From positions 10,755 to 74,754 of the forward strand of contig CACZTP010000001.1 of the NCBI GenBank assembly GCA_902784055.1: a stretch of DNA of 64,000 bases, in the 5' to 3' direction. A program made the translations under genes and the position numbers. Origin of the DNA: an uncultured Pseudomonadota bacterium (GTDB taxonomy: Bacteria; Pseudomonadota; Alphaproteobacteria; RUG11792). The notes below the pieces were generated by a model. That model ran no database searches, was not told where the DNA came from, and worked only from the letters and a program-made list of their open reading frames with translations. This document shows, in pieces, positions 4,350 to 59,661 of the stretch. Each line of letters begins with the position of its first letter. The stretch's first letter is position 1.

Positions 4350-5489
4350 CTAAATATATCTATCAAATTTGTCTTTCGTCAATTTTGTTTTTGGATTATT
4401 TTTATCAGAACATTCGCTATTAAATTCCTCGATAAGATCACGTTGTTGTTTTGTCAGATCAACAGGGGTTTCAATAACTATTTCAACAAGCATGTCACCA
4501 CGTCGAGATGATTGATAATAAGGCATGCCAGCCGACTTTATTCTGACTTGGGTACCAGTTTGTGTCCCGTGCGAAATATTTATTGAATGAATTTTCTTGT
4601 CAATATCAAAAACATCTATCGTGCCCCCCAATATTGCTGTTGCAACTGGAATGTAAACAGTACATTTTAAATCATGCCCTTCAAGTTTAAATACATCATG
4701 AGGTAATACACTAACAACAACGTAAAGATTGCCTGCAGGGCTTCCCATAAATCCAGCCTCTCCTTCGTTAGGGATGCGAATTTGACTACCCGGTTCAATA
4801 CCTGCCGGGATCTTCACATCAAGGTTTTTTTCAGCTTTAACTCGACCAGAACCGGAACATTTTCTACATGGGTGAGAAATAATACTTCCCTGACCACCAC
4901 ATTGTTGACATGTTTGCTCTATAGTTAAAAACCCGTTTCTTGTACGAATGCTTCCACGCCCTCCACAATTTGGACAAACTGTAGGCGTGTATTTGTTATC
5001 ATACCCTTTTCCTGAACATAAATCACAACGGACAAAAGTCGTATATCTCAAGTTTTTACTAGTTCCATTACATGCTTCACGTAATGATACAGCAATGTCA
5101 TAACGTATATCGGCACCTGGTTGTTGTCTTGACGAGCTTCGCCCCCCCCCAAAAATGCTATCGCCAAACATTTGTTCAAAAATATCTGAAAAATCACCAA
5201 AATTACCAGATGAAAACCCGCTACTTGAAAAACCTTCAAACCCAGAACTTCCGCTACTTCCTCCACTGAATGCATCGGAGCCATATCGATCGTATGCTGA
5301 ACGCTTTTTGTCATCTTTTAAAACTTCATACGCTTCGTTAATTTCTTTAAACTTTTCCTCAGCTGATTTATCTCCAGGATTTTTATCGGGGTGGTATTTT
5401 AGCACTAATTTTCTATACGATTTCTTAATTTCATCAGCAGATGCATTTTTAGATACACCTAGTATTGAATAATAATCTTTATTACTCAT
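4350..5489 (-). CDS. dnaJ: Chaperone DnaJ
   Basis: J domain ([25 protein letters not shown]), a G/F-rich region, and four CxxCxGxG zinc-finger repeats ([32 protein letters not shown]). Confidence 0.97.
5142..5150. repeat. C9/G9 homopolymer inside dnaJ coding sequence (encodes GGG of the G/F region)
   Basis: Direct read: g ccccccccc aaaaa on the plus strand. Confidence 0.95.
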
Positions 5490-7694: not shown

Positions 7695-7974
7695 AAACCA
7701 CTTCAACGAATAGTTTTAAAAAAATGTTGTTTGCTACATTCTTTACTCTTGTATGAATATTATTATATTCCTACCAACGGGTGTTTCAATTTTTAGTTAG
7801 AAGCTTATTAAAAAAATATCCAAGATTTTGTCAATTTGGCGCTGAAGATGCGTTAAATAGTACGTATAAGTCTAAACGACAAGCACCAAGCTGTTAAGTT
7901 GTAGCTACGATGTTTTTCTCTAAACTGTAGTGTAAACTAGCATTGAAAGCTTACAAAGCAACGGTTAAAAATTA

Positions 7975-8757
7975 ATGCTTCAGAGAGTAATTGTTTTTGG
8001 AAATCAAAAGGGTGGGACAGGCAAATCCACCCTTGCGATGCATCTTACAGTTAGTCTTTTGCATCAGGGATATAAAGTTGCAACAATAGATGTTGATGCA
8101 AAGCAAGGGACGTTTACAAGGTATATAGAAAATAGGATAAAAACAAGCCAAAGCGATCCTAAAATTAAATATCCTACACATAGATCCATTTTCGAGAGTT
8201 TTTCAGATTCCGTTCGTGTAAAACATAAAGAAAATTTTTTGAAGTTTAGTGAATTAATAAACTCGTTGAAAGATTTCGATTTTATAGTAATCGATACGCC
8301 TGGAAGTGAAACAGATTTATCAAAAATTGCTCATTCGTTTGCAGACGTAATAATTACCCCGTTAAACGAAAGTTTTATTGATCTCGATTTAATAATAAAA
8401 GCAAGCCCAGTAAAATCAGGATTAAATACTGGTTCATATGCTGAAATGGTTTGGGAACAAAAAAAAGCTCGTGCTCAACGAGACAAAAATAGCGTTGATT
8501 GGATAATTTTGTTAAATCGTATGTCAAGCGTAGAATCACGTAATAAAAAAGAACTAGAAAAGATTTTAATATTACTTTCTAAACGCCTTGGATTTAGATT
8601 TATAAAAGGATTTAAAGAACGAATTATTTTTAAGGAATTGTTTTTATCAGGCTTAACCCTTCTTGATGGAAATACTACTCGTACAGGTCTTAATTTGTCT
8701 CACATTGCAGCTCGCCAAGAGTTAAAAAATCTTCTTAAGGAGCTTAATGTAGCATGA
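7975..8757 (+). CDS. mipZ: Division-plane positioning ATPase MipZ (ParA/MinD superfamily)
   Basis: VIVFGNQKGGTGKST deviant Walker A, IDTPG, ITPLNESFIDLD, ILLNRMSSVESRNKK, LGFRFIKGFKERIIFKELF, HIAARQELKNL. Collinear with Caulobacter MipZ as I recall it. Confidence 0.85.
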   Translation: MLQRVIVFGNQKGGTGKSTLAMHLTVSLLHQGYKVATIDVDAKQGTFTRYIENRIKTSQSDPKIKYPTHRSIFESFSDSVRVKHKENFLKFSELINSLKDFDFIVIDTPGSETDLSKIAHSFADVIITPLNESFIDLDLIIKASPVKSGLNTGSYAEMVWEQKKARAQRDKNSVDWIILLNRMSSVESRNKKELEKILILLSKRLGFRFIKGFKERIIFKELFLSGLTLLDGNTTRTGLNLSHIAARQELKNLLKELNVA

Positions 8758-9074
8758 TAAAAATACAAAACGATGCACTAACAGCTATAATGGAAGCTAT
8801 TAAATTAAATCTCGGAAAATATCCACGAATTGTCTTACGCTCAGGAGGGTGTGCCGGGCATATGCTTGTTTTAACGTTGGATAATATCCATTCGGGAGAT
8901 ATTGAATACTCAGAACAAGGATTAACTTTTGCAATAGAACCAGTGGCAGAACCTTATACCGAAAACATAACAATATATAAAAAACCTGGACTTATGTCTG
9001 AAATACTAATCCGCAATAATTCAACAGAATATGTAAAATGCCGTTGCGGTAAATCTTTTAAAATTACAAAGTAA
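8754..9074 (+). CDS. erpA: HesB/IscA/ErpA-family iron-sulfur cluster insertion protein
   Basis: GGCAG motif and C-terminal C.CGKSF. 106 aa. ATGA overlap with mipZ. Confidence 0.8.
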   Translation: MIKIQNDALTAIMEAIKLNLGKYPRIVLRSGGCAGHMLVLTLDNIHSGDIEYSEQGLTFAIEPVAEPYTENITIYKKPGLMSEILIRNNSTEYVKCRCGKSFKITK

Positions 9075-19603: not shown

Positions 19604-21739
19604 TTACTTGCGAACAACTCGTTTTATAAACCCTGTAGATAATAATAGAGCGATTATTACATTGAGTCGAGACAGAGATGAAACGTTTATTTCTAAATAG
19701 AAATCTTTGAATGAATTAAACGTATTTTCAATGTTAACGCTTAAAATTGAAGAGTCTTGCTGTTCGACAATCTTTGAAATTCGACTAAGATTGCCAGGTT
19801 GATCGAGAATAGTTATAAGCAGTTTGGCTGAAAAATTGGTATCCTTATAATTATATGAAGGATCCCAGTACAGGTCAATAATTTGGTAATCAATGTTAGG
19901 CAATAGAGACTTCAATCGCAGACATTCCTCTATATGAACTTCAACTGACGGTTGATTTGTGACAGATTGAGATACAGCTCCAAACAATTTATCACCTAAA
20001 ATAGGAAAACAACAAAATGTTCTAATAATGGGAAAATCAGGTAACCCTAAAATCATTTCAGCGAGTTTATTTCCAGATTTTACATTTGATGTTAAAACTA
20101 GCTTTTTTCCAAAAATCTCTTCACATTTACGTGCAATTTCCCACATTGCCAAAGAGCTTGCACCTATAGCAAAATAGAATTGATTTTCATTGTCGAACCC
20201 CAAGCTTTTTATTAACGATTTAAGCCCGGAAGGAGATAGCACAGTATCGTTAACTTTTAATAAATCGTTAAAGCATGTCTTGCCTGTTATTTCTAAATTA
20301 ACATTTTCAAAATTCGTTAAAGCTCGGTGTATCGCCATCTTCGCTTTTGCTGTAATAACATACATTTGCCACACGCTATGTGGCGTCGCTTCTTTATCTG
20401 TCAGTATATTTATTTGATCTCCATTTGCAATTATTGTCTTTAATTGTGCTTCTTTGTTATTTATAGTGGCGCCCACCGCGTGATTACCGATTTCAGTATG
20501 AATTGCATACGCAAAATCCAAAACAGATGACCCGACAGGTAAAGAAATTATCTCTCCTTTTGGAGTTATACAAAAAACGTGTTCTGACGCTATTTCGGTT
20601 TTTGAATATTTTATAAAATCATCCATTTTAGAAGAGTTGTTAAGTGTTCTTACCATATCTTTCAACCATTGATAACTTGAATGCGTGCGGTATTTTGCTC
20701 CGTTGTTTTCCTTATATTCCCAATGAGCAGCAATGCCGTATTCGGCAATAAGGTGCATTTTTTGTGTGCGTATTTGTATTTCAATACGCTTATTAAGCGG
20801 TCCTATAATACACGTATGCAAAGATTGGTACCCATTCAACTTTGGTGCGCTTATGTAATCTCTAAAACGCCTTGGGACAACAAGATACTTGCGGTGTAGA
20901 ATTCCCAAAACCTGATAGCATTGTTTTTCATTATCAACTATAACTCTGAAAGCCATTATGTCCGATAGTTGATCGAACGACATAGTTCGTACGTTCATTT
21001 TGTTCCAAATTGAATAGGGAGTTTTTAATCTTCCATCAATTTTGTATTTAACTTTTAGTTCACCTAAAGCTTCGACGAGTTTGTTTCGTATTGTATTTAT
21101 TATTTCATCCTCAGAATTATATAAATCTTTTAATTTATTACGTATTGAGTCATACAAACTTGGATAAAGTTCGTAAAACGCCCTGTCTTGCAATTCATCT
21201 TTTATTTTATACAAACCCACACGTTCAGCCAGTGGAGCGTATATTTCAATCGTTTCTCGAGCTATCGCCTCTCTTCTACTTTTTCTTTTTTTAAATTTTA
21301 AAGTACGTATATTATGCAAACGATCAACAAGTTTTATAATAAGAACCCTTATATCAGATGCAGCTGCAAGTAGTAGCTTCTTATAGTTTTCCACTTGTTG
21401 CGTCGTTACCTTAACTTGTTCTATTTTTGAAAGTTTTGTTACCCCGTTTACTATTGATGAAATTTCTGAACCGAACATTTTTTTTAATTCAGGAAGGGTA
21501 GTAGATGTATCTTCTAGTGTGTCATGCAACAAACCAGCGACTATAGTCACCTGATCCATTTTTAACTCAGTAAGTATCTGAGCAACAGCTAAAGGATGGG
21601 AAAAATAAAGCTCACCTGATTCTCTCACTTGCGTTCCATGTTGTCTCAATGCGAACAAATAGGCTTTTTTTATGAGATCTTCATTAACGTTTGAGAGGTA
21701 GCTTCTAACTTCTTTTATTAGATCGTCATATGTGAGCAC
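19604..21739 (-). CDS. spoT: Bifunctional (p)ppGpp synthetase/hydrolase (RSH family)
   Basis: HD hydrolase motif (LLHDTLEDT). Synthetase motifs GRLKTPYSIWNKM, DIMAFRVIV, EIQIRT, AAHWEYK. Confidence 0.93.
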   Translation of the reverse strand: MLTYDDLIKEVRSYLSNVNEDLIKKAYLFALRQHGTQVRESGELYFSHPLAVAQILTELKMDQVTIVAGLLHDTLEDTSTTLPELKKMFGSEISSIVNGVTKLSKIEQVKVTTQQVENYKKLLLAAASDIRVLIIKLVDRLHNIRTLKFKKRKSRREAIARETIEIYAPLAERVGLYKIKDELQDRAFYELYPSLYDSIRNKLKDLYNSEDEIINTIRNKLVEALGELKVKYKIDGRLKTPYSIWNKMNVRTMSFDQLSDIMAFRVIVDNEKQCYQVLGILHRKYLVVPRRFRDYISAPKLNGYQSLHTCIIGPLNKRIEIQIRTQKMHLIAEYGIAAHWEYKENNGAKYRTHSSYQWLKDMVRTLNNSSKMDDFIKYSKTEIASEHVFCITPKGEIISLPVGSSVLDFAYAIHTEIGNHAVGATINNKEAQLKTIIANGDQINILTDKEATPHSVWQMYVITAKAKMAIHRALTNFENVNLEITGKTCFNDLLKVNDTVLSPSGLKSLIKSLGFDNENQFYFAIGASSLAMWEIARKCEEIFGKKLVLTSNVKSGNKLAEMILGLPDFPIIRTFCCFPILGDKLFGAVSQSVTNQPSVEVHIEECLRLKSLLPNIDYQIIDLYWDPSYNYKDTNFSAKLLITILDQPGNLSRISKIVEQQDSSILSVNIENTFNSFKDFYLEINVSSLSRLNVIIALLLSTGFIKRVVRK

Positions 21740-46889: not shown

Positions 46890-46905
46890 TTAACGTTACA
46901 AAAAA

Positions 46906-46942
46906 AATAAACACTGCCTAGTTTTAATAGGCTGTGTTTATT
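46906..46942. terminator. Hairpin terminator between convergent ftsK and the 665-aa gene
   Basis: aataaacac-t-gccta-(loop)-taggc-t-gtgtttatt. The A7 run on plus gives a T-run for the minus-strand transcript. Confidence 0.6.
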
Positions 46943-46946
46943 AAAA

Positions 46947-48944
46947 TCATTTGCTAGAATTATTAAGTTTGTATTGTTCTTTAATTTTCATTCCTGGTTC
47001 AACAATCTTCTTAGGATAGAATTTTTGAGCATCGAAATAACCCTTTGGCCGATCTGGGTATATATTATCCCACCAATACGGAACCCAAATTTTACACTTT
47101 TTCAGACATGAATCTAGCCAGGTTTTATTTTCAATTGAAAAATCCGCAAACAATTTATTAACCTTTGTTGGACTTACTGCATATAAAGTACAACGCCTTG
47201 CGAATCTTATAAAATCCGACTTCGGAATGTTCCGTTCCCACCCCCATGATGATGATAAACCAAATTTTATACTATGATAAGTTGATCCGAGAATTGGTAA
47301 GGCTTTTAAGAAATCGATCCCGAACTTTTGACAATCAATTGCAAATTTAACAAAAGACGTAAATTTATCTTCGCAACAAAGTTCCACCGCATTAAACCAA
47401 CCTCTGTACTTCACATGTAATAAATTTTTTTCATTGTCATTAAAGGTTCTATTGTATAAAAGCTCAACAAGTAGTGCTTGTATTCCAAGATCCGTTTCAG
47501 AGCCGATAACACCTTCGGAGGCGTTCCACTTTTCTGGCGATATCTTCTTTAAAAAATTTTCTGGATCTACAGAACATCTCTGAAGCACTGGAGCAAATTT
47601 TATGGCAACGTCAAACGGCATGTTTATTTTGTATTTACCAGATAAATCAATTAGTTTTACTAACAGATCAATAGTTTCAAAAACAACATCGCCTTTAACT
47701 ATGTCTTCATTTAATTCGAAACATTTTTCTAATAACGCATTTAAAGAATAAATATCAAAATCTTGGGGATTAACAAGTTTTGTCGCGCTAATTTTGGACA
47801 TATATTGATCAAGAACTGTGTTAAAAGATGCTCTCGTTAACTTTTCTGTCTGCGTACAAAACTCAAGATACTGTAGCACAAGCCTAAGATATTCGAAATT
47901 GTAAACATCTTTTGTAAAAATGCGTAATGATTTTTTTGCTTGTACGGAATTAAATTTTAAAAAAAATTGCTTAAAATCACTATCACATTCCCCGAACTTC
48001 TTGAGTATAAGAGCGCAACTGTTAGAAGAAGCTGTATATCCATTTGCAAACAAAAGCTGTCCTTTTTTAAACGGATCTTTAGTCTCTTTTAACTGTTGTA
48101 TGGTTTGAGGACCATGTTCCAATGATGTATTTGTGGCATAAAGATAATCTATATCTTTACAGATAATCCTTTCTGCACATTTTCTTAATAGGTCATTGAC
48201 CCAATCTTCGTATCGGTCAACTTCTGCTGTTACAGACTCATCATATCCAAAAGATATTACATTGAGCTGTGTAAGGTAACAATACCAGTCGTTTTTTAAA
48301 CAATTGGTAAAAGCCTCTTCTCCAGAAAATTTTTCACACGATAATTGCCATGCATTAACATCGTTATTTCCATAAACAGAAAGACTATATTCAGACATTT
48401 TTTCTTTTATATCGGAAATTACAGATTGAAACAATTTTTCTGTAAGATCTGTATGACTACTGTTTTTTTGATAATTTTCATCATGAAAACGCTTATATAA
48501 ACCCAAGTAACACATCCATGTGGTTATAGCATTGCCAACATTTTTTAATGCATTTTCTGAATTTTCACGAAGATTTTGCCAAATATTGTTTATAAACAAA
48601 TTTGCCGTTTTATCATACTTCGTATTACGTTCTTCATCGGTAGTTGAGTTTATATCTTTTGCAATGACTATTAATTCTTTTAGGGCATTAATTGATGAAC
48701 TCCATTCGTCTTTGGTCGCCCAAAAAAGTTTTCCTTGCTCTTTTTTTAGACGATCGTTTATGTGTGATATTGTTTGCTGAAATCTTTCTTCAACAACGTT
48801 TACAATATTCCGTTCAAACGTGGAACTTTGTAAGTTACTAACTTCGTCTGTACTTACAACTCGTCCATCACTCGCGTGTAGCTCGATATCCGTTGAAATA
48901 ACAATTCCAAACAATGCCAACGATAAAAGTAGTGTTTTATTCAT
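46947..48944 (-). CDS. Secreted 665-aa protein of unknown function (paralog-family member)
   Basis: Signal peptide MNKTLLLSLALFGIVIS. AAGGTG RBS. Shares blocks with the decayed copy at 58740-59661. Confidence 0.75.
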   Translation of the reverse strand: MNKTLLLSLALFGIVISTDIELHASDGRVVSTDEVSNLQSSTFERNIVNVVEERFQQTISHINDRLKKEQGKLFWATKDEWSSSINALKELIVIAKDINSTTDEERNTKYDKTANLFINNIWQNLRENSENALKNVGNAITTWMCYLGLYKRFHDENYQKNSSHTDLTEKLFQSVISDIKEKMSEYSLSVYGNNDVNAWQLSCEKFSGEEAFTNCLKNDWYCYLTQLNVISFGYDESVTAEVDRYEDWVNDLLRKCAERIICKDIDYLYATNTSLEHGPQTIQQLKETKDPFKKGQLLFANGYTASSNSCALILKKFGECDSDFKQFFLKFNSVQAKKSLRIFTKDVYNFEYLRLVLQYLEFCTQTEKLTRASFNTVLDQYMSKISATKLVNPQDFDIYSLNALLEKCFELNEDIVKGDVVFETIDLLVKLIDLSGKYKINMPFDVAIKFAPVLQRCSVDPENFLKKISPEKWNASEGVIGSETDLGIQALLVELLYNRTFNDNEKNLLHVKYRGWFNAVELCCEDKFTSFVKFAIDCQKFGIDFLKALPILGSTYHSIKFGLSSSWGWERNIPKSDFIRFARRCTLYAVSPTKVNKLFADFSIENKTWLDSCLKKCKIWVPYWWDNIYPDRPKGYFDAQKFYPKKIVEPGMKIKEQYKLNNSSK

Positions 48945-48977
48945 AAATTTTTAACACCTTCTAAGCTATCTACACAT

Positions 48978-49006
48978 ACTATACCCCCCCCCCAGGACTT
49001 TGTCAA
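48978..49006 (-). promoter_or_regulatory. Sigma70-like promoter TTGACA-N17-TATAGT whose spacer contains a G10 tract
   Basis: Minus strand: TTGACA aagtcct GGGGGGGGGG TATAGT. The RBS and ATG (48944) lie 25-35 nt downstream. Confidence 0.55.
48984..48993. repeat. C10/G10 homopolymer (longest G/C run seen in the window)
   Basis: Direct read: ata cccccccccc agg. Confidence 0.95.
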
Positions 49007-49048
49007 ATATAATGTTATAATTTCTGATGTGTATATACGGTATTAGGT

Positions 49049-50086
49049 ATGTGTCATATGCTATTAAATGAGCAATTACAAGATTTTTTAAAAATTTTGA
49101 ACAAAATTGAGACAAATAATGAATTAGACATCGAATGTTCAAAGTTTTTAGGGAAATCTGGAATATTAACAAGAGAGTTCAAAAATCTTGCAAAACTATC
49201 TGATGAAGAAAAAAAAGCAACCGGGATAAGACTTAACGAAATAAAATCAATCGCTGAAAAAGCAATTAGAGAACGCAAAAACTGTATAAAACAAAAAGAA
49301 ATTGATCGAAAATTATCAGATGAGACTGTAGATATAACGTTGCCAGTACAAAAAGATTTTGGCAATTTGCACATTCTGACGCGTGAAACGCGACGTATAA
49401 AAAAGGAATATAAAAGCAAAGGGTATTTAATTCTTGATGGTCCTGAGATTGAAACGGAGTTTTTTAATTTTGATGCTTTAAATATTCCGAAATATCACCC
49501 CGCTAGGCAGTCGCAAGATACCTTTTATATAGAAAATTTTCCTGAAACACTTTTAAGAACGCAAACGTCATGCGTCCAAATAAGAGCGTTGCAAGAATAT
49601 GGCGTGCCTTTACGAATGATTTCAATAGGAAAAACATATAGAAACGACAAACTTGATGCTACCCATTCGCCTATGTTCCATCAAATCGAGTGCTTGGTTG
49701 TCGATAGAAAACCGATAAACGTTGGTCATTTGAAAGAAGCATTGCAACAAATAGTATCGTTTGTATTTGAAACAGATAACGTCTTATTGCGTTTCAGACC
49801 GAGTTTTTTTCCATTCACTGAGCCAAGCATGGAAGTCGATTGTTGTTATAGGAAAGTTAACGGAAAAGTTGAATTAGTATCTGATGGCAATTGTTGGCTT
49901 GAGTTGGGCGGATCTGGACTTGTTCATCCAAATGTATTTAAAAACTGCGGTATAGATGAAAAGGTATATGGATTTGCTTACGGTTTTGGATTAGAACGTC
50001 TTGTTATGCTTAAGTACGGAATAAATGATATTCGCTCATTCTATAATCCAGATCCGAGAATTCTTAAAAGTTACGCTTCAGCATAG
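49049..50086 (+). CDS. pheS: Phenylalanine--tRNA ligase alpha subunit
   Basis: HPAR..QDTFY, class II motif 2/3 (FRPS.FPFTEPS, GFAYGFGLERL). Confidence 0.95.
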   Translation: MCHMLLNEQLQDFLKILNKIETNNELDIECSKFLGKSGILTREFKNLAKLSDEEKKATGIRLNEIKSIAEKAIRERKNCIKQKEIDRKLSDETVDITLPVQKDFGNLHILTRETRRIKKEYKSKGYLILDGPEIETEFFNFDALNIPKYHPARQSQDTFYIENFPETLLRTQTSCVQIRALQEYGVPLRMISIGKTYRNDKLDATHSPMFHQIECLVVDRKPINVGHLKEALQQIVSFVFETDNVLLRFRPSFFPFTEPSMEVDCCYRKVNGKVELVSDGNCWLELGGSGLVHPNVFKNCGIDEKVYGFAYGFGLERLVMLKYGINDIRSFYNPDPRILKSYASA

Positions 50087-52098: not shown

Positions 52099-53925
52099 AT
52101 GAACAAAATGTTCAAGGTATTGTTAACATCGATGATCGCGATGCCTATGTTTGCAAGCCCAGACGTCGGAGCTAAGTCAAGATCTGGCTTTTTTATAGAG
52201 GCGAGCGTTTTTGGTCAGAGAGCAAAAGGGTCTTTTAAGAAGAATTCTGATTTGCTCGATAAATATAAAAGATTTCAAACTTGGTTAAAACAGAATGAAG
52301 CTACACAGAAAAAGATAGCTGAGGATGTTAATAAAATTCAACACTTACAAGCCAATCTTAACGCCGAAAATGATGCGGCCGCTTTAATTCAGAATGCATA
52401 CAAGACTACAACAGATATAGAATTCAACGGTGATACGGCTGATAACATTGATAACTCCCCGGGTTACTCAATAGATACATTCAAAATGAAAACAGTTAGA
52501 CAAGCCCGTCAATATAAATCTATTGGTCCTGGCATGTTTGTTGTTAGAAAAGATAGAATGATAAGAGTGGACGCTGATGGTTTCGCGAAAAAACTTGATG
52601 ATCCCGGTGCAGAGGGAGATAGTCTTATTCAAGCTGGTGTTGTCACTAGGAACGACGGAGCATTAAATAACCCAGCAAATGCTGCCCCTGACGCCAAGTT
52701 TGTTGCATATAGAATGACTGAAAGACCTATGGATGTGTTTGATGGTAACTGCGGCGAAGAGGCGGCTACTGGGGAAAGGATTGATCTTGATCAAATTGAT
52801 AGGTCCAATCTACAAAACGTCAATAATTTTTATTATGCGACTGATAATGATGGGAACGAGAACGAGGATTTTATAAGATTAAATGCAAAAGCTGCATGGA
52901 AAACTCATACTTACTCCGCTGATGAAGTCGTTGCTGACGGCACTTTGCGTGCGTCAATTGCGATCGGTCTTGATGATAAATCCTTAGAAGCAGCGGGTTT
53001 ACCAACCTTAAAAGCTTTGAACTTCTTGAATTTAAGTGGACACGGCGTTGTTCAGAATGCGTTGTATGTATCTGAAGATACCAAGACCGAAATGAATGGT
53101 AACTTTTTTTTAACGAATGCACGCACGTTTGGAGTTAACGTAGATTCAAATATAAAAGCAGCAATTGATGAGAGTCTTAGTGATTTTGACAAATTTAAAT
53201 CGAGTTTAATATCTTATGCAAAGAAGAAGGGGCTTGCCGCAGAGGAAGGAAACTCGGATTTAGCGTATTCAGATGCCAAAAAGTTTTCGTTTGGAGCAGA
53301 CGTAACACTCGGTTGTCGCCAATCCATAGGGGATTTTGATCTGTTCGGGGGGCTAACAGCTAGTTTTGTTTTCGCAAAAAAAACACTTGAAATAACGGAT
53401 TCTGATTCGAGTAGTAATGATAGTAGCAGTTCGAACGATGCGAACACGTCAGATGAGAACAAGGATAATGAGACATCAACAAATCTTAAATACCAGATTG
53501 ATGTTAAGATGAAGCCGAGCTTTGGTTTTACACTTGGACTGGCGTATCGAATTCTCCAAAATTTCTCTGCTGGAGTTGGAGTCGATATTACTAATGCTAG
53601 ATACGAAATAAATACAAACGATATAAACAAGTTGTTTATAGCGGAGAATGATGTCGTTGCAGATAGACTATCAGAACTTGGCGCAAGTACGTACAATTTT
53701 AACAAAGATGTTATTGAAAAAGGGCTGGGTAATAATAAATTGTCTGTGTCTAAGTGGGGGGTTAGTCCTTATGTAAAGCTGACATATCACTTAAACGACT
53801 GTGCCTCGATATTCCTGAAATTTGGATATGATAGGAGACATATTCTTCAAAACAGTAACACTAGTATTGGAGAATTGAAGCTAACAGGAATGAAATTTGG
53901 ACTTGGTATTAATTTAAATATATAA
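52099..53925 (+). CDS. Putative outer-membrane protein (608 aa): passenger, Ser/Asn/Asp linker, about 155-aa C-terminal beta-barrel-like domain
   Basis: Signal peptide MNKMFKVLLTSMIAMPMFA. Linker DSDSSSNDSSSSNDANTSDENKDNE. KPSFGFTLGLAYR... runs to the C-terminal GLGINLNI. Paralogous in architecture to 18342-19481. Confidence 0.7.
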   Translation: MNKMFKVLLTSMIAMPMFASPDVGAKSRSGFFIEASVFGQRAKGSFKKNSDLLDKYKRFQTWLKQNEATQKKIAEDVNKIQHLQANLNAENDAAALIQNAYKTTTDIEFNGDTADNIDNSPGYSIDTFKMKTVRQARQYKSIGPGMFVVRKDRMIRVDADGFAKKLDDPGAEGDSLIQAGVVTRNDGALNNPANAAPDAKFVAYRMTERPMDVFDGNCGEEAATGERIDLDQIDRSNLQNVNNFYYATDNDGNENEDFIRLNAKAAWKTHTYSADEVVADGTLRASIAIGLDDKSLEAAGLPTLKALNFLNLSGHGVVQNALYVSEDTKTEMNGNFFLTNARTFGVNVDSNIKAAIDESLSDFDKFKSSLISYAKKKGLAAEEGNSDLAYSDAKKFSFGADVTLGCRQSIGDFDLFGGLTASFVFAKKTLEITDSDSSSNDSSSSNDANTSDENKDNETSTNLKYQIDVKMKPSFGFTLGLAYRILQNFSAGVGVDITNARYEINTNDINKLFIAENDVVADRLSELGASTYNFNKDVIEKGLGNNKLSVSKWGVSPYVKLTYHLNDCASIFLKFGYDRRHILQNSNTSIGELKLTGMKFGLGINLNI

Positions 53926-58435: not shown

Positions 58436-58739
58436 TTTTATTTCAGAATTATGGACAGGTATAAAATGTATATTTCGACAACCTGTTACTCTAAGTAAGA
58501 CTAACATTTTAGAACTTTCTCAAAAACGATCCTTTAATCGATTGCGTGTTGACCCTAGCAAATGTATAAAGTGTAAAAATTGCATGTATATATGCCCTAA
58601 CAAATGTATTCAAATTCTAGACACATCGATACAGAATGGTGAACACTTTAGATGGGATGAAACAAAATGCGCAAATTGCAGATTATGTGAAAAATCATGC
58701 CCAAAAAAAGCAATTAGAGTGAAATTAATACAATCATGA
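58425..58739 (+). CDS. nuoI: 2x[4Fe-4S] ferredoxin-like protein, probable short NuoI
   Basis: Two CxxCxxCxxxCP motifs (CIKCKNCMYICP, CANCRLCEKSCP), spaced as in NuoI. NuoI-type N-terminal lead G.K..F..PVT. 104 aa against about 160-180. Overlaps ruvX by 11 nt. Confidence 0.6.
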   Translation: MGINFISELWTGIKCIFRQPVTLSKTNILELSQKRSFNRLRVDPSKCIKCKNCMYICPNKCIQILDTSIQNGEHFRWDETKCANCRLCEKSCPKKAIRVKLIQS

Positions 58740-59661
58740 ACAAAACTGAAACAATCTTTTTGTATTAAACTATTACCTAACCATTTCTCAACCAAATTTG
58801 AAACTGGTCGCCTTTCTTTTAAGATTTCTGCGCAATTAACTTTTGTCGATCGACTACCACTTTCGTGTACATTATACATTCCTAAATTAATAACAGTGGA
58901 TAATACCGTATCGGGATTAATAGCCATATACCATTCAGAACCATTCGCTATTACGGAAAATTGATACAAATAGCACTTCCAATCGTGAAATAGACATTGC
59001 TTTAATTTTTTTTCATCTCCGTCGAATATTTCCAATAAACGAGGGTTTATTTTTTCTTCATAGCACCAAACGTCTTCGTCTCCATCATGGACATAATCTG
59101 CATAAAACGCAAGAGTTTTTTAGACCTTGTTGAACAATGTACCAGGGGCATCGAGATAATCTGTAGAAGCATACTTAAGTATAAACTTCTCCCTCAATGT
59201 GGTATATATCATTAATGTATTCATATATCCGAACGCCTTTTTACAAGCATTTGATTTTAATCGTTCATCAATTTGTTAATGATTTATCAATAACAAGATT
59301 TTCTAGTAATTCAGAAATCCGAGAGTACAGAATAGGAAATACTTTATCTTTGCCTACATTTTTAGATGAATTAATAGCTAAAACGCACAATTTTTTTAAA
59401 TTTTCAATAGACGAAGACCATTCATTGCCGGTTGTGATAGCCTCATAAGCCCAATAGTTTTTACCATATTTATTTGGTGCAAGTTTTATAAACTTATCAA
59501 CATTATAATTTACAGTTTTGTATAGATAGATATTTATATTAACATTAAAAAAGATCGTTTTTATCTTGTAATTCTGTCGCATGCACACAGCTTCGTTCAA
59601 GAATTACGTTAGAAAACGCTGATAGACATAACAAAACTAAAAATACTCTTTTATTAAACAT
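58740..59661 (-). pseudogene. Decayed, C-terminally truncated paralog of the 665-aa secreted protein gene
   Basis: ATG 59661 gives MFNKRVFLVLLCLSAFS.. then a stop after 37 codons. Homology continues in other frames: NEWSSSIENLKKL vs DEWSSSINALKEL, and FHDWKCYLYQFSVIANG vs KNDWYCYLTQLNVISFG. At least three frame or stop disruptions. Only about the first 260 residues are represented. Confidence 0.65.

Follow-up and report, generated by a model that had tools for sequence, protein, structure and literature searches.

Is a run of ten guanines, placed inside the promoter spacer of a gene for a putatively exported protein, a slipped-strand switch of that gene or a fixed part of its promoter? The question is raised by a 64,000-nt stretch of DNA from an uncultured bacterium, referred to here as the window. 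The original prediction had assigned the run to a minus-strand promoter of orf665, a gene coding for a 665-aa protein. All the elements that it had named (TTGACA, aagtcct, G10, TATAGT, AAGGTG and the ATG) were found on the minus strand at the claimed coordinates, with a spacer of 17 bp. We considered three lineages carrying the locus: lineage A, that is the window; lineage B, with 95.5% nucleotide identity to A; and lineage C, the RUG14152 species. The features used in the following are:

49001..49006, minus strand: −35 hexamer TTGACA of the predicted orf665 promoter, read from the sequence and identical in lineages A, B and C
48994..49000, minus strand: remainder of the spacer, outside the repeat: aagtcct (in lineage C, aagtctt), read from the sequence
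48984..48993, minus strand: G10 homopolymer (C10 on the plus strand) completing the 17-bp spacer, read from the sequence
48978..48983, minus strand: predicted −10 hexamer TATAGT, 17 bp from TTGACA at G10 (TATAAT in lineage B, TAATAT in lineage C)
48976..48981, minus strand: staggered second −10-like hexamer TAGTAT, 2 nt downstream of TATAGT and 17 bp from TTGACA if the tract is G8
48955..48960, minus strand: RBS AAGGTG of orf665, in the block AAGGTGTTAAAAAnTTATG, which is kept in lineage C
46947..48944, minus strand: orf665 (ORF call), 665 aa, an orphan with a signal-peptide-like N-terminus, predicted all-alpha
47959..47966, minus strand: T8 run inside orf665, at about codons 326-328 (T7 in one lineage B sample)
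49013..49021, plus strand: extended −10 element TGTTATAAT of the predicted divergent pheS promoter, 6 bp from the orf665 −35 and read from the sequence
49058..50086, plus strand: pheS, phenylalanyl-tRNA synthetase alpha (Pfam match)
~58530..59661, minus strand: decayed orf665 paralog with in-frame stops, frameshifts and internal deletions, and with no G tract upstream

The tract and the two predicted promoters around it

The window has a GC content of 33.75%, and the G10 run is, as had been claimed, its longest G/C homopolymer; the only other G/C run of at least 7 nt is a C9 at 5142-5150, within dnaJ. From this composition about 0.002 G/C runs of at least 10 nt are expected per window, and the G10 run is non-random. 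The claim that the tract lies in non-coding DNA, inside a promoter spacer, agrees with what is read from the sequence: the tract is 40 nt upstream of the orf665 start codon (ATG at 48944-48942, minus strand), in an orf665-pheS intergenic region of 113 bp. A phase switch by frameshift within a coding region was also considered and is ruled out for G10, since the tract is outside the ORF.

For the promoter itself, matches of 11/12 were counted in the whole window, and 4 were observed against 4.4 ± 1.7 expected from shuffled sequences. The orf665 promoter is the best promoter match within 46.5-50.5 kb. Since a match score of this kind is at chance level in AT-rich DNA, the promoter reading rests on position and conservation and not on the score. 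Conservation was evaluated between lineages A and C, for which the synonymous divergence of pheS, dnaX and ftsK is saturated (dS 1.1-1.4). The block ACCCCCCCCCCAGGACTTTGTCAAATATAATGTTATAATTTC is identical at 38 of its 42 bases, the unbroken G10 included, and the block from the RBS to the ATG of orf665 is conserved as well; the other intergenic regions of the two lineages have 19-52% identity. The homopolymer sits between the −35 and the −10 of a predicted sigma-70-type promoter, and the footprint is conserved in the three lineages. As hexamers, spacer and RBS form a phylogenetic footprint in otherwise unalignable DNA, the orf665 promoter is very likely real. The near-consensus promoter claimed for orf665 is hence upheld by the A-C footprint, the match alone being not significant. 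A weaker alternative promoter, TATACA-N18-TATATT at 49035-49006, would place the tract in the 5′ UTR. No Rfam family was matched in the whole window, so that the conserved block is unexplained by a known leader or riboswitch.

On the other side of the intergenic region, the likely true start of pheS is the ATG at 49058 (MLLNEQ), which is conserved in lineage C; the longest ORF begins at 49049 and the Logan gene call is of 342 aa. The element TGTTATAAT is a perfect extended −10, approximately 31-36 nt upstream of this start, and a promoter of this type needs no −35. The same element, at the same distance, was found in RUG11792 and in an 'uncultured Holosporaceae' bin (L007, L008), both without orf665, and in RUG14087 (L005), also without orf665, it reads TGTTATACT. 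Its being kept in relatives that lack orf665 indicates that canonical sigma-70 promoter logic holds in the clade. The conservation extends among Holosporales-like rumen MAGs that are 69-77% identical in PheS, a group in which clear promoter conservation is rare.

Where relatives share the pheS promoter and lack orf665, the C run is missing upstream of pheS; judged from these sequences, the ancestral pheS promoter did not include the run. We read the region as two back-to-back promoters, with predicted starts near 48971 for orf665 and near 49028 for pheS, i.e. ~57 bp apart. In several relatives (L005, L006 and L007) the pheS −10 is preceded, at a distance of 10-14 nt, by TTGTCA or TTAACA, and at 49000-49007 of the window the reverse complement of this pheS-associated motif supplies the orf665 −35 TTGACA. 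The orf665 −35 may have been co-opted from this older motif.

Two further explanations of the run concern this arrangement. In Haemophilus influenzae hifA/hifB, a (TA)n repeat lies in the overlapping spacers of both divergent promoters and controls both of them. The likeness to our locus is a slippage-prone repeat in a short region common to two divergent promoters. We rejected the shared-spacer type, as the tract (48984-48993) is upstream of the nominal −35 of pheS and in the orf665 spacer only. The run could otherwise be a binding site for a regulator, or a rigid block of G.C pairs by which the two promoters are insulated or coupled, with the variation in length being incidental. We consider this improbable. 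It would account for a run that is conserved in composition, beyond its length class, and that lies just upstream of the pheS −35 position while within the orf665 spacer, between predicted starts so close that the polymerases must interact. However, pheS evidently needs no such run, given the relatives described above; the locus tolerates a run of 8 to 11 nt, no palindrome or second half-site accompanies it, and neither Rfam nor any other known element was matched.

Tract length and spacer geometry among lineages

For lineage A the tract is G10 followed by TATAGT in both the ENA and the Logan assemblies, and the identical DNA is present in a cattle-rumen metagenome scaffold (STEW19-1 SAMEA5383934; Logan ERR3275091). 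For lineage B it is G8 followed by TATAAT in six assemblies (L084, L089-L093), which derive from at least three BioSamples (SAMN18817948, SAMN18817858 and SAMN18817888) and from three assemblers. For lineage C it is G10 followed by TAATAT in five assemblies spanning two protein variants. A further lineage C contig (L098; Logan, SRR30827593) has G11, and here the tract is the sole gap in a 2,220-nt alignment with 99.2% identity to RUG14152. The run is uninterrupted in every lineage and, the G11 contig excepted, its consensus length is constant across all the assemblies of each lineage. These lengths were read from consensus assemblies, some of which re-assemble the same samples, hence only about 7 independent populations are represented. 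Invariance across strains was the check attached to the original prediction; the tract varies, with 8, 10 and 11 G's among close relatives. A PheS search of the collection for lineages between 89% and 100% identity found no more of them. A scan of JGI metagenomes with the tract-independent pattern AACATTATAYTTGACAAAGTC gave one match, in unrelated DNA of 50% GC, which was rejected as due to chance.

We considered whether the length differences might be artefacts of sequencing or assembly at poly-G, the true tract being uniform. Poly-G is hard for short-read chemistry, G11 has the support of one 2.2-kb Logan contig, and three contigs (L085, L097 and L099) end or turn chimeric within ~35 nt of the tract. 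On the other hand, the G8 allele recurs in all the lineage B material listed above, always linked to the lineage-specific TATAAT and to ~4.5% flanking divergence, and G10 is reproduced in ENA, Logan and NCBI assemblies of the two other lineages. An artefact is thus a very improbable explanation. As regards the three contigs, L085 and L097 are short and start 13 and 19 nt from the tract, and in L099 (SAMN18817926 scaffold_50658) the first 33 nt, which include C7+AAGA, are unrelated or chimeric and run on into pheS. Breaks of this kind near the tract could come from coverage dropout at poly-G or from heterogeneous lengths interrupting the assembly. We discarded the contig ends as evidence for such heterogeneity because they are too ambiguous: low coverage and poly-G dropout would account for them just as well.

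As controls we considered the other homopolymers of the region. In dnaJ (4350-5489, minus strand) the G9 at 5142-5150 encodes Gly-Gly-Gly and is present in the lineage A strain only: the site reads GGGGGAGGG in lineage B (L100, L101), at just 1.3% divergence, and GGAACGCGT in lineage C (L102), where the run is absent. A further 21 kb of lineage C is free of G/C runs of 7 nt or more. Since substitutions have interrupted the dnaJ run in relatives, a G run does not persist by default, and the fact that the promoter tract has stayed pure across dS > 1, whereas the dnaJ G9 has not, argues for selection on the purity of the tract. As for length, in an alignment of ~9.8 kb between lineages A and B, 2 of 34 homopolymers of at least 6 nt had changed. 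One is the G tract; the other is an A8 run in non-coding DNA (46900-46907), where ftsK and orf665 converge stop to stop, and this run is A7 in lineage B. A change of length is therefore ordinary for long non-coding homopolymers, and variability by itself is unremarkable.

The effect of these lengths on the spacer was evaluated by enumerating the −10-like hexamers of lineages A, B and C for tracts from G6 to G13. For lineage A, TATAGT is at N17 with G10 and TAGTAT is at N17 with G8. For lineage B, with the observed G8, TATAAT is at N15 and TAATAT, created by a G-to-A change, is at N17; at a hypothetical G10 this allele would be a 12/12 consensus promoter. For lineage C, G10 places TAATAT at N17 and G11 places it at N18. 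A TAnnnT hexamer thus lies 17 bp from TTGACA in the dominant allele of every lineage. The claim that the spacer is optimal only at exactly 10 G was too strong, since the staggered hexamer gives 17 bp at G8, which lineage B carries. Taken with the G-to-A change, the contraction by 2 nt in lineage B resembles a register shift that was compensated. The presence of staggered TAnnnT hexamers in each lineage makes a graded output likelier than an on/off one and suggests a dial.

The same observations bear on an explanation without switching, in which the promoter is static and constitutive. The 17-bp geometry would be selected, rare slippage would be purged, or else offset by moving the −10 to another register as in lineage B, and the tract would drift slowly. 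The constancy of the consensus length within each lineage, across samples and assemblers, is what such a promoter would give, and so is the N17 position of TAnnnT in all dominant alleles. The drift of the non-coding A8 between A and B is in its favour, as is the G9 that lineage A tolerates in the essential dnaJ, which does not suggest an extreme instability of G runs. Yet a static promoter leaves unexplained why ten low-constraint spacer positions have stayed pure G across dS > 1 in a 34% GC genome, when the dnaJ run decayed at once and the promoter run was kept. Moreover, G11, hence N18, is present in a strain 99.2% identical to G10 strains, and a mutation-prone run in a constrained spacer should be counter-selected unless useful. 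We regard the static promoter as quite possible, although we incline against it.

The orf665 gene and its bacterium

By inspection, the N-terminus of orf665 consists of MNK, a hydrophobic stretch of 14 residues and LHA|S, and a signal-peptide-like N-terminus is present in lineages A, B and C; the product is probably Sec-exported. No match was found in Pfam, NCBIfam or PDB (sequence profile). Searched exhaustively with HMMER, a set of 1.84 billion representative proteins yielded 3 matches: a truncated variant with 91% identity, the RUG14152 ortholog (36-39% protein identity) and a weak repeat protein. A word-indexed protein search gave 0 matches, orf665 itself included, and a scan of GTDB genomes with orf665 peptide patterns gave 0 relatives, the patterns being so strict that they missed the RUG14152 ortholog. 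Orthologs were located via pheS. The AF2 model, from a 4-sequence alignment, is all-alpha with a pLDDT of 39.6 and is unusable. In RUG14087, the only one of the relatives at 77-78% PheS identity examined for orf665, ftsK is followed directly by pheS with no orf665 between them, which restricts orf665 to a small clade.

Between lineages A and C the dN/dS of orf665 is 0.22, so the gene is real and purifying selection acts on it. The A-B comparison gives 0.81, against values of 0.115 (pheS) and 0.096 (dnaX) at an equal dS of ~0.06; diversifying selection on a host-facing protein would give such a value, and so would relaxed constraint. A T7 allele of the T8 run, found in two assemblies of one lineage B sample (L084 1126-1132, L085 1007-1013), truncates orf665 at 328 aa, with the downstream frame still open for ~90 codons; the other lineage B samples have T8. 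A second site of slippage, a gene at an early stage of pseudogenisation or a mistake in assembly could each explain the T7 allele.

The original prediction had also placed the gene in a local paralog family with a decayed copy. The decayed copy was found: it is co-linear with orf665 residues 67-140, 158-248 and 527-560 and retains a signal-peptide-like start, MFNKRVFLVLLCLSAFS. The family was not, since a phmmer search among the large unannotated ORFs of the window revealed no intact paralog. Considering the dN/dS of 0.81, the frameshifted allele and the decayed paralog together, orf665 could be in the process of being lost in some strains and not regulated.

The taxonomic context that had been claimed is roughly right. 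The nearest species representatives by PheS are rumen MAGs, RUG14152 with 89% and RUG14087 with 77% identity, followed by RGIG5096, RUG11792 and the 'uncultured Holosporaceae' bin with 69% each, and the nearest named DnaJ homologs are from 'Holosporales bacterium' MAGs. By these relatives the organism is a Holosporales-like rumen bacterium.

Some other features of the neighbourhood were observed. A second orphan ORF, located 2 kb downstream of pheS at 52099-53925 (plus strand, 608 aa), begins with what looks like a signal peptide and matched nothing in Pfam or NCBIfam; it is called with 605 or 608 aa in other assemblies, the choice of the start codon being the sole difference. On the lineage C contig k87_31694194 (L102, positions 7719-9023 and 20032-21251) a phage large-terminase gene adjoins the OmpA-family (pal-like)/dnaJ region and a 1590-aa autotransporter gene extends past the end of the locus; the gene order around dnaJ also differs from that of the window.

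A proposed promoter-spacer dial and its known counterparts

The claim of a slipped-strand phase switch was borne out in part: the tract is in the spacer, differs in length among strains and is unbroken across dS > 1, but its consensus length is constant in each lineage apart from the one G11 contig. The sequence of events that we propose is the following. The extended −10 promoter of pheS would have been inherited from ancestors without orf665, and TTGACA-N17-TATAGT would drive orf665, a fast-evolving, clade-specific orphan. Selection would keep 10 of the 17 spacer bases as a pure G run, in which replication slippage would shift the length, with 8, 10 and 11 fixed or dominant in different strains. 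Each change of 1 nt would alter the distance between −35 and −10 and, therefore, promoter strength. With two staggered TAnnnT hexamers per lineage, the result would be a graded 'volume' dial over approximately G7-G11 and no clean on/off.

We give even chances to this reading, in which the orf665 promoter is genuine, selection maintains its poly-G spacer and slippage, by changing the length of the spacer, tunes transcription (volume control). In this reading we infer the start site, the dependence of expression on length, a reversible and high-frequency switching within populations and the export of the protein. The stronger statement, namely that this is a true contingency locus in which slippage makes the output of an exported, lineage-specific protein vary heritably and at high frequency in a Holosporales-like rumen bacterium, is possible but rather unlikely. 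The T8 run in orf665 might add a second slippage site to such a locus, and the tract length might also shift the competition between the orf665 promoter and that of the essential pheS.

The closest known systems are promoters with a G homopolymer in the same position. The account of Neisseria meningitidis porA in PMC7864442 describes a poly-G spacer tract of ~9-11 nt, with expression that is best at 17 bp and falls as the tract shortens. As in porA, the tract of orf665 is a G homopolymer between the −35 and −10 of a sigma-70 promoter of an exported-protein gene, export being predicted for orf665. Switching of porA was measured in clones, whereas for the orf665 tract the differences are between strains only. 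In addition, the staggered −10-like hexamers of the orf665 promoter, unlike porA, should soften changes of 2 nt, and the gene, carried by an uncultured Holosporales-like rumen bacterium, codes for an orphan without porin features.

In Treponema pallidum, poly-G lies between the −35 and −10 of tp0126, an OmpW homolog, with 7-11 G coexisting in vivo, and G runs of ~7-12 nt are in the promoters of signal-peptide protein genes (tp0126, tprE/G/J and tprL; PMC7864442). The likeness extends to an uncultivable, host-restricted organism with a small genome. In that bacterium both the within-strain heterogeneity and the reporter effects were measured, whereas the orf665 tract is known from consensus assemblies, and the two bacteria belong to unrelated phyla with unrelated target proteins. 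As a candidate, orf665 is a credible promoter-spacer contingency locus of the porA or tp0126 kind, partly supported by these likenesses, with the switching itself being presumed.

For Helicobacter pylori sabA, the account in PMC4081817 describes a T-tract 'rheostat' in which repeat length gives graded, non-binary expression, and a similar graded output is predicted for orf665 from its staggered −10 hexamers. The sabA tract adjoins the −35 and acts via DNA phasing and UP-like contacts, whereas the orf665 tract is inside the core spacer. For Chlamydia trachomatis, homopolymer-based phase variation in an obligate intracellular bacterium is described in PMC4514472; both the phylum and the loci differ from ours.

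Our search of the literature on homopolymer phase variation in Rickettsiales, Holosporales and protist symbionts found nothing specific. As the mechanism is known in host-restricted Treponema pallidum (PMC7864442) and, according to the account cited, in Chlamydia (PMC4514472), the case is less novel than had been implied. Phase variation of this kind is textbook in Neisseria and documented in Treponema and Chlamydia, and what appears to be new here, with partial support, is the Holosporales-like example.

If the tract is static, the locus would be a clean case of compensatory promoter evolution, with a 2-nt contraction and a shift of the −10 register, and of modest interest. To our knowledge, the Holosporales-like group is known only as symbionts of eukaryotes, mostly protists. 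Protist hosts are without adaptive immunity, which is the usual explanation for such switches in pathogens. If the dial reading is true, phase or volume variation would extend to a symbiont group for which we found none in the literature, and orf665 would be a candidate for host interaction in a lineage with almost no functional annotation. It would also imply stochastic bet-hedging of an exported, fast-evolving protein in Holosporales-like rumen bacteria, which are most likely protist symbionts.
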